Translations under genes and position numbers: made by a program
Shown: in pieces, positions 6,309-8,663 of the stretch
Layout: each line of letters begins with the position of its first letter
Numbering within the stretch: the stretch's first letter is position 1
Source of the DNA: a virus
Taxonomy: Duplodnaviria > Heunggongvirae > Uroviricota > Caudoviricetes
Direction: 5' to 3' (one strand)
IMG/VR virus record: IMGVR_UViG_2695420699_000009
Location: 1-8,931 of that record
DNA length: 8,931 nucleotides
Notes under the pieces: generated by a model
Database searches by the model: none
Told to the model about the DNA's origin: nothing
What the model saw: only the letters and a program-made list of their open reading frames with translations

Positions 6309-6390
6309 AGAATACCCATAGGTAAACAAAAGTCAATACCCATAGGTTGTTTACCTTGCGGTAATCGCATCTATTATTTACCTATGGATA
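6309..6390. promoter_or_regulatory. OR-like divergent promoter region with three copies of a 12-bp palindromic operator (consensus TACCyATrGGTA)
   Basis: Operators at 6313-6324 (TACCCATAGGTA), 6337-6348 (TACCCATAGGTT) and 6379-6390 (TACCTATGGATA, overlapping the repressor ATG). Candidate minus-strand promoter: -35 TTGACT (6336..6331), -10 TATTCT (6314..6309). Candidate plus-strand promoter: -10 TATTAT (6372-6377), placing the start at or near the ATG. Confidence 0.6.
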
Positions 6391-6803
6391 AATATGAATT
6401 TAGACGACAGCAACTCATCAAAATTCGTGATGAGAAATGCGATGGTAAAGCGGTTAACGTGGCCAGAAAGATCGGGCGCGAGCCTTCTTATGTATCAAGA
6501 ATGTTGTACCCAGAGGGGAAAAAGGGAAAAAAACGGATCGCTGATGATATGGTGGAGATTATCGAAGAGTCCTTTGGGTTACCCCGGGGATGGATGGATG
6601 GTATCGTTTCATCATCAACGAACACAGCCTCCAGTTATGAAACAAGGGTTCTAACGCCACGACAACGTATTTTTTTAGATCTCTTAGACGAACTGCCAGA
6701 AAGTGAAGCGGATAAATTATTAAAAACTCTTGAAGAGAAAAAACAGTATTACAATATGATCTACGAAGAAATCCGTAAAAAGAAAGCACAAAACGCATCA
6801 TAG
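6384..6803 (+). CDS. CI-type prophage repressor, 139 aa, XRE-like HTH with a DicA/RacR-like C-terminal region
   Basis: Divergent from the Cro-like gene. HTH-like segment AVNVARKIGREPSYVSRML. The C-terminal part (LTPRQRIFLDLLDELPESEADKLL...) resembles the DicA C-terminus as I recall it. No SD upstream, consistent with a leaderless transcript. Confidence 0.8.
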   Translation: MDKYEFRRQQLIKIRDEKCDGKAVNVARKIGREPSYVSRMLYPEGKKGKKRIADDMVEIIEESFGLPRGWMDGIVSSSTNTASSYETRVLTPRQRIFLDLLDELPESEADKLLKTLEEKKQYYNMIYEEIRKKKAQNAS

Positions 6804-7207: not shown

Positions 7208-7408
7208 TTACTTCAGAAAGTCTCTGGTGAGTGCACCGAAGATATTGTCAACGATTTCGTCATCAAACTGCGAGGACTCATCTTCAGTTACAAGGTGACC
7301 ACAATTTTTGCAGATGGCTCCCGCGAAACTGTCAGAGCCATGCGGTTTAAAGGATGTGTCAAAGACTTCGCCGCCACATTCTGGGCAAGAAAACTTGATT
7401 GTATTCAT
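7208..7408 (-). CDS. Small Cys4 zinc-ribbon protein with an acidic C-terminal tail, 66 aa
   Basis: Two CxxCG knuckles (CPECGG and CKNCGH) 20 residues apart. ATG at 7408 preceded by GAGAGGAAA at ~9-nt spacing; the ORF-track start at 7414 is a TTG. Oriented opposite to the surrounding plus-strand early operon. A plus-strand ORF (7073-7429) fully overlaps it; the zinc-ribbon motif decided the call. Confidence 0.55.
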   Translation of the reverse strand: MNTIKFSCPECGGEVFDTSFKPHGSDSFAGAICKNCGHLVTEDESSQFDDEIVDNIFGALTRDFLK

Positions 7409-7500
7409 AACCAATTTCCTCTCGAGTAACAGCCGCCTCAGAGGATACCACCTCGCCTGACGTGGTTAAAAGCAGGCAACGCTAACCACAAGGAGCCGAC

Positions 7501-7719
7501 ATGCAGAAACGAGAACCCGTCATCATCGCGCCAGACTATACCGATGATGAACTTTATGAGTGGATGCACCAGAAAATTAAGGCAGCGCAGGACCTGAAAT
7601 GGGCCAATGAAGCCAGGGCTAAGCAAGCTGAAAATCTGTCCGCTCTGGAGCAGGATATCACCAATCTGGAAAAAGCAGCGGCATTAAGCATTGCCAGAAT
7701 GATTACATACCCGCGTTAA
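7501..7719 (+). CDS. Hypothetical early-operon protein, 72 aa (same position and size as Qin YdfC, but not verified)
   Basis: ATG at 7501 preceded by AAGGAGCC at 5-6 nt spacing; TAA stop at 7717-7719; same strand as the dicF-dicB module. Confidence 0.6.
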   Translation: MQKREPVIIAPDYTDDELYEWMHQKIKAAQDLKWANEARAKQAENLSALEQDITNLEKAAALSIARMITYPR

Positions 7720-8059
7720 TAGCTAACCAACGAAGCTAAGGTTGGTAATTAAGGAGTTCTCCACGGGTGAGGTGGAGTGCGTGCGCCGGACACGGGTGAG
7801 CATCCGGCACTGACAGTTTACTGAAAGGATATTTCCCTGAAAAGTCAGGGCATAACGCGAAAGCGCACGGCGAGGTAGCTGGTTCATAGATAGCCTGTCG
7901 TTAAATTTTCGTCGACCGTGCGCTTCCGGTTGTGGCACTCCGCGAAATGGCGCGGCGGTAAGTATGGCGGGGTTATTCCTTCCCCGTTGAGGACACCGGG
8001 TTGTCAGGTTGACCATACGCTTAAGTGACAACCCCGCTGCAACGCCCTCTGTTATCAAT

Positions 8060-8117
8060 TTTCTGGTGACGTTTGGCGGTATCAGTTTTACTCCGTGGCT
8101 GCTCTGCCGCCCTTTTT
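8060..8117 (+). ncRNA. dicF: DicF-like small RNA (ftsZ-targeting sRNA of Qin-type prophages)
   Basis: TTTCTGGTGACGTTTGGCGGTATCAGTTTTACTCCGTGGCTGCTCTGCCGCCCTTTTT matches my recollection of E. coli DicF almost base for base. It ends in a GC-rich stem plus T-run and lies ~170 nt upstream of the dicB-like gene, as in the Qin dicB operon. Ends are approximate, since DicF is made by processing. Confidence 0.7.
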
Positions 8118-8286
8118 AAAGTGAATTTTGTGATGCGGTGAATGCGGCTAAGCGCACGCGGAACAGTTAAAACCAAAAACAGTGTTATGGGTGGATTCTC
8201 TGTATCCGGCGTTAATTGTTAACTGGTTAACGTCACCTGGAGGCACCAGGCACTGCATCACAAAATTCATTGTTGAGGACGCGATA

Positions 8287-8475
8287 ATGGAAAAGTTATC
8301 ACGTAATGCCAGCACGTCTGAACTTCGTTTCGAAATTGGCGTTATCACTGGAGACAAAACATTTATTGAAGACGCCATTAAGCAGAGAAAACTCGAGCAG
8401 GACCTGTTAAATGAAGTATGCATTCCTTCAATGCTGGCTCGTCTGGACCTGCTGCAAAAAGGATATAAACAATGA
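8287..8475 (+). CDS. dicB: DicB-like cell-division inhibitor, 62 aa
   Basis: Same length as E. coli DicB and shares recalled motifs (FEIGV, EDAI, KRK, LLN, SMLARL, C-terminal KG..Q). ATG at 8287 preceded by GAGGA at ~8-nt spacing; the ORF-track extension to 8182 has no support. Confidence 0.8.
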   Translation: MEKLSRNASTSELRFEIGVITGDKTFIEDAIKQRKLEQDLLNEVCIPSMLARLDLLQKGYKQ

Positions 8476-8663
8476 ATACAACATTTGCACTCGTTCTGAC
8501 AGTTTATCTTGTTTCCGGCGAATCTCTTGAGCTGGTGACTGGCTTATACGGTTCAATGAAAGAATGCATGGCTGCAGCAGCAGAACAAAAAATTCCCGGT
8601 AACTGTTATCCGGTAGATAAAACTACCCACACTAATAATAACGAAATACCGGCAGGACTTTAA
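8472..8663 (+). CDS. Small protein with a hydrophobic N-terminus, 63 aa, translationally coupled to dicB (YdfD-like by position and size)
   Basis: ATG at 8472-8474 overlaps the dicB-like TGA stop in an ATGA arrangement. N-terminal hydrophobic segment MNTTFALVLTVYLVSG. Matches the position and length of Qin YdfD; sequence identity not verified. Confidence 0.55.
   Translation: MNTTFALVLTVYLVSGESLELVTGLYGSMKECMAAAAEQKIPGNCYPVDKTTHTNNNEIPAGL

Follow-up and report, generated by a model that had tools for sequence, protein, structure and literature searches.

A conserved pseudoknotted RNA domain upstream of dicF in a Qin-type prophage and other phages of Enterobacterales

The untranslated spacer between ydfC and dicF (7720–8059) in the early-left operon of a Qin-type prophage contains a 115-nt cloverleaf-plus-pseudoknot RNA domain that is apparently previously undescribed. 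The spacer is read here as three RNA modules. In the reading that we favour, with confidence and doubt in about equal measure, 7929–8043 is the cis-acting folded 5' domain of a pro-sRNA and supports the processing or stability of long DicF. The 'untranslated region' before dicF becomes a defined object with this analysis: within the long precursor of DicF lies a pseudoknotted domain under strong conservation, found again in many phages next to small RNAs with differing seeds. DicF itself is suggested to be part of a broader phage small-RNA family, many members of which go unrecognised by current models. DicF was among the earliest bacterial small RNAs to be described, and understanding of its toxic, widespread operon is still poor. 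The window, that is, the whole stretch of 8,931 nt analysed here, comes from a Qin-type lambdoid prophage, of which it covers the immunity and early region; its features are listed in Table 1.

Table 1. Positions of genes, RNA elements and helices in the window (the arrow marks the cut)
Feature	Position	Strand	Remarks
Repressor gene	6384–6803	+	
ydfC	7501–7719		directly 5' of the spacer
ydfC-dicF spacer	7720–8059		340 nt, untranslated
5' variable segment	7720–7855	+	weak constraint, mosaic
Hairpin CUCCAC/GUGGAG	7759–7777		in 5' variable segment
Hairpin GCCGGA/UCCGGC	7785–7808		in 5' variable segment
Hairpin CCCUGA/UCAGGG	7835–7850		in 5' variable segment
Long imperfect stem	7861–7870/7916–7925 (AAGCGCACGG/CCGUGCGCUU), then 7871–7873/7912–7914	+	MFE
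Conserved structured module	7929–8043	+	115 nt, covariation
Closing helix	7929–7936/8036–8043		in module; 8 bp
Arm 1	7940–7944/7951–7955		in module
Short helix CGGU/ACCG	7956–7959/7995–7998		in module; carries arm 2
Arm 2	7968–7972/7982–7986		in module
Arm 3	7998–8006/8026–8034 at widest (7999–8006/8026–8033 in model)		in module; hairpin of 8–9 bp
Pseudoknot GUAUGG/CCAUAC	7962–7967/8013–8018		in module; arm 2 internal loop with arm 3 loop
Single-stranded AU-rich linker GCCCUCUGUUAUCAAU	8044–8059	+	ends at RNase E site
RNase E site	between 8059 and 8060, CAAU↓UUUC (8056–8063)		fits RN↓WUU; motif read from sequence
DicF small RNA and intrinsic terminator	8060–8117	+	Rfam RF00039; same unit as the spacer
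dicB	8288–8476		followed by ydfD

In E. coli K-12 derivatives, the 340-nt spacer has a match at 97% identity that coincides exactly with the ydfC-dicF spacer of the Qin prophage, which carries no annotation there. The dicBF operon of K-12 (Faubladier et al., 1990; Ragunathan et al., 2023) is thus the same locus, with the order ydfC, spacer, dicF, dicB and ydfD, and the long stem and linker of the window lie where the RNase III and RNase E cuts of K-12 are expected. Matches to the spacer were found in 4326 of 5426 complete E. coli genomes (about 80%), with at least 80% query cover in 3492 of these. Its GC content is 54%, against 48% in the window. The K-12 operon transcript begins at dicBp and the locus is without an internal promoter (Ragunathan et al., 2023; PMC10448788); a scan of the + strand of the window from 7400 to 8300 likewise found no promoter-like sites. 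Northern blots and primer extension, together with an rnc mutant, identified a 190-nt DicF species whose 5' end is made by RNase III, while the 53-nt DicF requires RNase E and much transcription ends at the DicF terminator as a 1146-nt transcript (PMC10448788). The original prediction of a platform from which RNase III and RNase E release DicF agrees with these published data, by which the part of the spacer in processing had already been established for K-12. The K-12 literature treats the spacer as an untranslated region or as the 3' UTR of ydfC (PMC10448788) and, outside Faubladier et al. (1990), describes no conserved fold, pseudoknot, optionality or presence in P1 or other genera. In Rfam 15, no family was found in 7720–8059, the best match being mascRNA-type (14 bits, E = 9).

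Four hairpins and a 10-nt direct repeat had been listed from the letters of the spacer, and all are present: CCGGA-N12-TCCGG at 7786–7807 (in fact a 6-bp stem at 7785–7808), CCCTGA-AAAG-TCAGGG at 7835–7850, CCGCG-AAATGG-CGCGG at 7940–7955, CGGGG-N9-CCCCG at 7968–7986, and CACGGGTGAG at 7762–7771 and 7791–7800. The region was also rightly described as dense in hairpins, with seven perfect ones (stem of at least 5, loop of 3–12) against 2.83 ± 1.73 expected, a count reached by 14 of 500 dinucleotide shuffles. An exact 10-nt repeat arose in 22 of 500 shuffles, and the MFE of the whole spacer gave z = -2.8 on the + strand and -3.5 on the - strand. The hairpin signal of the single sequence is therefore modestly beyond chance (about 2.5 times the shuffles), and the strong evidence rests on the comparison of homologues. 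There, the listed hairpins fared unequally: those at 7940–7955 and 7968–7986 are arms of the conserved domain, whereas those at 7785–7808 and 7835–7850 fall in a weakly constrained mosaic segment. None of the four is the RNase III substrate of the supposed platform. The region is indeed folded, with main helices beyond those first listed, namely the long stem, the closing helix, the arm 3 hairpin, the short helix and the pseudoknot.

The spacer is non-coding, as had been supposed. Distinct homologous spacers measure 340 nt about as often as 341 nt, and 338, 342, 311–312 and 256 nt also occur. A minus-strand frame of at least 100 codons is kept in only 12 of 34 distinct spacers, and the 111-aa minus-strand ORF has no match in Pfam. 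Because of the frame-shifting lengths and the lack of a Pfam match, the 'hypothetical protein' calls in some records are most likely spurious. One such call, the 54-aa WP_122994137.1 of RefSeq, lies on the minus strand at 7723–7887 in the identical sequence of strain 14EC001 and is probably spurious.

The module consists of the closing helix and three arms that meet at a linker-free four-way junction, giving a cloverleaf outline. RNAalifold, applied to 23 divergent untrimmed sequences, predicted the closing helix, arm 1, the short helix and arm 3, with double compensatory changes in 10 of 23 pairs. The pseudoknot lies outside that prediction and was added by inspection; its GUAUGG strand is invariant. 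In a MAFFT alignment of 23 sequences, 96.1% of cells were paired (91.0% in shuffles), double-sided changes occurred in 14 of 31 module pairs (5.4 in shuffles) and the covariation score was 0.228 (0.136 in shuffles). For all three measures, none of 500 shuffles reached the observed value and slid partners paired in only 26–55% of cells, these shuffle controls being uncorrected for shared ancestry. Covariation across homologues, which the original prediction had proposed as a check, is accordingly strong for 7929–8043. The variable arm 2, which MAFFT failed to align, was for that reason excluded from the formal pair counts and assessed per sequence.

Individual helices vary to different degrees. 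Arm 1 is nearly invariant, with one compensated variant, and arm 3 occurs in at least eight fully compensated versions, such as GGGUAACCA/UGGUUACCC, GAGCUACCA/UGGUAGCUC and GGAUCACCA/UGGUGAUCC. Arm 2 is found as dozens of differing stems with differing loop lengths. At the variable pair of the pseudoknot, 86 distinct copies have U-A (74), C-G (7) or U.G (5) and never C.A, and the C-G state is seen in P1-type, L255-type and otherwise Qin-type backgrounds. The frequent G.U pairs of the module would be A.C on the opposite strand, so the structure is placed on the + strand, in the sense of DicF. Unpaired nucleotides of the module (GCGGUAAG, ACACC and AGGUUGACCAU) do not vary across E. coli, Serratia, Erwinia and P1. 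The MFE structure of 7926–8046 exactly reproduces the model with an energy ordinary for its composition (z = -1.04), while the 196-nt long form misfolds in silico (z = -1.85). With such unremarkable thermodynamics, the evidence for the module is evolutionary rather than thermodynamic.

A tRNA or tmRNA identity of the module was considered and rejected, since ARAGORN found no tRNA or tmRNA genes in 7700–8200 and the Rfam tRNA models gave no match; the likeness is confined to the cloverleaf outline. A hammerhead-like reading of CUGANGA was dropped, as Qin-type copies have UUAAG at that place. The C/A-rich CCACAAC strand had suggested an anti-sRNA of the AgvB type, but AgvB sits 3' of PR' in the late region. 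GGCGGTA is common to the spacer and the ops consensus. An ops/RfaH site was nevertheless rejected, because the next bases differ beyond this common string and the string is engaged in covarying RNA pairing.

Downstream of the module, DicF itself (8060/8061–8112) scores 75 bits against RF00039 (E = 1e-15, gathering score 48), and this match is confined to the neighbouring RNA, no part of the RF00039 model being matched by 7720–8059. A site of the RN↓WUU type coincides with the mature DicF 5' end, 16 nt after the closing helix, and motifs of this type were found in the linkers of 100 of 135 distinct copies, with about 58 expected. A terminator-like site at 8095–8110 is followed by a T run. In every one of about 150 distinct copies, and whatever sequence stands upstream of the module, a run of unpaired nucleotides (median 21 nt, range 7–112) and then an intrinsic terminator come after the closing helix. 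The terminator is mostly of the DicF type (UUGGCGG...CCGCCCUUUUU), and the seeds differ among lineages. This constant linkage indicates that the conserved unit is the structured domain together with a variable seed and the terminator, and DicF itself seems to belong to a larger family of phage small RNAs with a common chassis.

Two further observations concern the sequences behind the module. Terminator-ended RNAs whose seeds are unrelated to that of DicF follow it in L004 (cdtI), L054, L127, L048, L001 and other loci. In copies from Trabulsiella, Erwinia, Izhakiella, Serratia and F1055 (L022, L024, L025, L014 and L006), a Shine-Dalgarno-like GGAG and an ATG or GTG about 60–110 nt past the module open a tiny ORF (for example, MFYRGTALFTQ followed by a stop) that crosses the 3' arm and U-tract of the terminator; its translation could interfere with termination.

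Upstream of the module, the whole-spacer MFE contains the long stem as 10 bp of perfect helix followed by 3 bp. Rac-type copies have AGGCGCAUUUCC/GGGAGUGCGCCU at this position, which amounts to several compensated positions. When the 190 nt of the K-12 species are counted back from the DicF 3' end, the RNase III end falls near 7923, within the 3' arm of the stem; its place in the window is thus set by length. An extended double-stranded helix therefore stands at the cleavage position so derived, and from position and structure we infer that the long stem (7861–7873/7912–7925) is probably the RNase III substrate. The string AAGCGCACG occurs twice in the window, at 7861–7869 in the 5' arm of the long stem and at 8150–8158 downstream of DicF, so that the 3' arm at 7916–7925 has two possible partners. 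Pairing of 7916–7925 with 8150–8158 would bracket the whole long-DicF unit.

Database matches to the spacer break at recurrent points, and query positions of about 210–332 (window 7929–8051) are found again on their own, with no other spacer sequence, in cdtI, Stx2c-converting phages, Salmonella phage F1055 and P1/P7-like phages. About 150 distinct module copies came from pattern scans that covered species-representative genomes, viral contigs and metagenomes; they are hosted by Escherichia, Shigella, Citrobacter, Trabulsiella, Serratia symbiotica, Erwinia, Izhakiella and P1-like elements. The invariant strings are kept in genera whose flanks do not align with those of the window. Looser patterns returned chiefly chance matches, the metagenome pattern giving two new P1-like variants besides, so that the family appears confined to phages of Enterobacterales. 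The covariance model of the module scores 143.8 bits in the window, where it has a single copy even though about 6 kb of rightward operon are included; the cdtI, F1055 and P1 loci are also single-copy. Near-identical E. coli or P1 sequence was noted in metagenome bins labelled Bacillota, Veillonella and Collinsella (L017, L018 and L021) and in the phage records PP818812 and MT713136 ('Actinobacillus' and 'Aeromonas' phage), which is most likely the result of mis-binning or contamination.

When DicF-type loci were collected through the conserved sequence 3' of the terminator, whether or not they had the module, 182 showed the full module, 11 a point-mutated or truncated one and 41 none (about 17%). 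Interior-less loci retain the closing helix in the shape of a mini-hairpin, GGUUGUG-AAUA-ACAAC or GGUUGU-AAAUA-ACGAC, the AAUA loop being that of Rac and phiSTEC1589. This form arose at least twice independently, and locus L371 displays a precise, independent loss of the interior. The closing helix is thus a universal hairpin, with the interior as an optional addition inserted at its tip.

The P1 match (NC_005856, leader of the ban operon) lies directly behind the C1-controlled promoter Pban and overlaps an annotated 'dicF-like region'. This region is the same module, with 98.5 bits under the covariance model, sense orientation and a terminator 3' of it. The P1 seed and terminator are unrelated in sequence to DicF, and in P1-type copies the closing helix pairs poorly. 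An Rfam scan of the P1 copy, the sole locus with a non-DicF seed so scanned, gave neither DicF nor any other family. Judged by these sequence comparisons, the similarity behind the P1 annotation is to the spacer module, not to DicF itself. Counted from the predicted Pban start, the covariance-model match begins after about 17 nt and the module after about 20–25 nt, and a strong terminator is complete at about 180 nt; the primary transcript is therefore predicted to measure about 180 nt, matching long DicF in size.

In the favoured reading, the module belongs to the pathway that makes DicF. RNase III would cut the long stem near 7923 and so detach the roughly 190-nt long DicF from the polycistronic mRNA. 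The module would form the 5' body of the freed RNA, its four-way junction locked by the pseudoknot, while the closing helix would keep the AU-rich linker single-stranded and position RNase E, whose cut at 8059/8060 would yield mature DicF. The interior may give the long form a nuclease-resistant, specifically recognised 5' end or a docking surface, and a protected 5' end would account for the stable 190-nt pool in stationary phase. The compensated changes of the long stem between lineages and the mini-hairpin of interior-less loci support this explanation; the unremarkable stability of the module and of the 196-nt form (z of -1.0 and -1.85) counts against it. As about 17% of DicF-type loci are without the interior, the latter is not needed for making the small RNA. 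The invariant unpaired nucleotides imply a specific partner, which leaves an explanation by stabilising or spacing incomplete. In cdtI-type copies, the linker of just 12 nt is too short for a conventional seed to be freed by cleavage.

Among known systems, 3'-UTR-derived and intra-operonic small RNAs such as CpxQ and SroC are similar in that the small RNA and the upstream mRNA use one terminator and RNase E frees the RNA at an RN↓WUU-type site past a helix. They differ in having no independently mobile, covarying domain of 115 nt before the small RNA and no prior RNase III step. The module, its pseudoknot, its spread, its presence in P1 and its optionality were found in neither Rfam 15 nor the searchable literature, Faubladier et al. 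(1990) and the P1 genome paper aside.

Alternatively, the module may represent a new class of structured regulatory RNA, in which binding of a host factor decides between stopping, with formation of a DicF-type RNA, and read-through. This proposal is tentative and rather unlikely. If it is true, the host factor would be RNA polymerase, a ribonuclease or a small ligand, and read-through would reach cell-division-inhibitor, recombination and replication genes. Its members would then be present in most E. coli strains and in many phages of enterobacteria, P1 among them.

The predicted RNase E cleavage would be expected to leave a folded by-product of about 137 nt (7923–8059), which corresponds to the idea of an additional sRNA in the original prediction. 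The operon would then give two products, and the by-product would be a stable trans-acting RNA that binds or sequesters a host protein or RNA. We regard this as unlikely. In its favour, the closing helix has one processing site only 6 nt before it and another 16 nt after it, the compact fold combines a pseudoknot with invariant loops, and the published blots used DicF probes, the fragment being outside their scope (PMC10448788). Moreover, the small RNAs that accompany the module have unrelated seeds, which makes conservation of the module independent of the seed. Yet the module is never found apart from a terminator-ended small RNA, and it is dispensable in about 17% of loci.

HK022 put suppresses termination via the beta-prime zinc-binding domain. 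A put-like, cis-acting RNA that modifies RNA polymerase by anti-pausing or antitermination could carry transcription past the DicF-type terminator and so express dicB/kil and recombination genes or, in P1, tRNAs and ban. Both are structured RNAs of an early phage operon, placed after a repressor-controlled promoter and before a terminator, in phages without N protein and with invariant unpaired nucleotides, as expected for contact with a protein or polymerase. The module always stands just upstream of a strong intrinsic terminator within an early operon; the P1 and L016/L076 copies follow the promoter region directly. No N-like protein was found upstream of the module copies in the window, K-12, cdtI and F1055, and phiSTEC1589, which has an N protein, is without the module interior. 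Two short strings (ACCAUGCG and GCGCGGCGG) are common to the module and putL. However, put is about 70 nt long, with two stem-loops and a triplex, and is present twice per phage (putL and putR, behind PL and PR), whereas the module is 115 nt long, with a four-way junction and pseudoknot, and has one copy per phage, none being in the rightward operon of the window. In blastn-short comparisons, putL and putR share with it only chance 8–11-mers in differing order, and the covariance model gives at most 10 bits on the HK022 put regions, which places the module outside the put elements. In addition, Rac-type loci without N and without the module have the same terminator before kil, and in K-12 much transcription stops at the DicF terminator as the 1146-nt transcript (PMC10448788). 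A put-like function is therefore quite unlikely, and the antitermination or Rho-loading role that had been suggested for the spacer is unsupported, with no put similarity, a single copy and no N or nut partner.

The related proposal that the module replaces N is not established, given the Rac-type loci that have neither. A lambda-type nut site was also rejected; there is no N-like ORF upstream, and the window has GUGCGCUU at the boxA-like position. Some copies have a boxA-like UGCUCU(U/C)U just 5' of the module, and phiSTEC1589 has a typical nutL elsewhere than at the module position.

Less probable still is a riboswitch-like sensor, in which the closing helix would become more stable on binding of a metabolite, an ion or a protein, and the ligand would choose between termination, giving the small RNA, and read-through, or would control the access of RNase E. 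The module does have an aptamer-like fold with covariation support, and its closing helix, multi-helix junction, pseudoknot and invariant junction nucleotides are followed by a short linker and an intrinsic terminator, in P1 within the leader of an operon. The 5' strand of the closing helix can instead extend the long stem by pairing with 7851–7856, as seen in the single-sequence MFE of the whole spacer. Nevertheless, no mutually exclusive antiterminator pairing was found conserved across lineages, no Rfam riboswitch matched and the gene context suggests no ligand. Pairing of the module GGCGG with the 3' arm of the terminator, which appears in a single-sequence MFE of the long form, was rejected because P1-type terminators are without the complement.

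Finally, it is very improbable that the spacer is a decaying, functionless remnant or encodes the annotated minus-strand protein: 'hypothetical protein' entries do exist in some RefSeq and phage records, most copies are in cryptic prophages and about 5% carry point changes at invariant positions, but frame-shifting lengths are common, the minus frame is open in 12 of 34 spacers without a Pfam match, 14 compensated pairs and strand-specific G.U pairs are incompatible with neutral decay or coding constraint, and the invariant strings persist in genera with unalignable flanks.

The 5' third of the spacer (7720–7855) is a weakly constrained mosaic without demonstrable role. Just 37 of the 159 distinct upstream variants have the repeat CACGGGTGAG in duplicate, and in some copies a deletion of precisely the intervening 29 nt has collapsed it. 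The hairpin at 7785–7808 has an invariant stem and a variable loop, while that at 7835–7850 occurs in one compensated variant (CUCUGA/UCAGAG) and one common disrupted variant (UCAGAC). Both 7720–7855 and ydfC are missing in most other phages. Elsewhere, the most frequent arrangement has the long stem immediately after sequence that lies upstream of ydfC in the window, so ydfC and 7720–7855 look like an insertion.

Upstream of ydfC, the + strand at 7447–7477 reads ACCAC-CUC-GCCUG-AC-GUGGU-UAAAAG-CAGGC, for which an H-type pseudoknot is possible. Both stems are kept, with changes, in Rac-type and other copies (GCCCGG/CCGGGC and GCCCG/CGGGC), and in most other phages this element sits immediately before the long stem. 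In the dicF-dicB spacer, 8124–8264 (+) gives a sub-threshold Rfam match to STnc100 (34.5 bits, gathering score 47, E = 1e-5), a family tied to the PasD small RNAs of pathogenic E. coli in a 2026 preprint, and may be a third RNA element within the dicBF operon. The cdtI-type (L004) and Citrobacter (L019/L020) copies have a long inverted repeat, ACAAAACAGAGAAGAGCA ... GUUCUUCUCUGUUUUGU, about 5–110 nt after the terminator, which differs from the STnc100-like downstream element of Qin-type loci.
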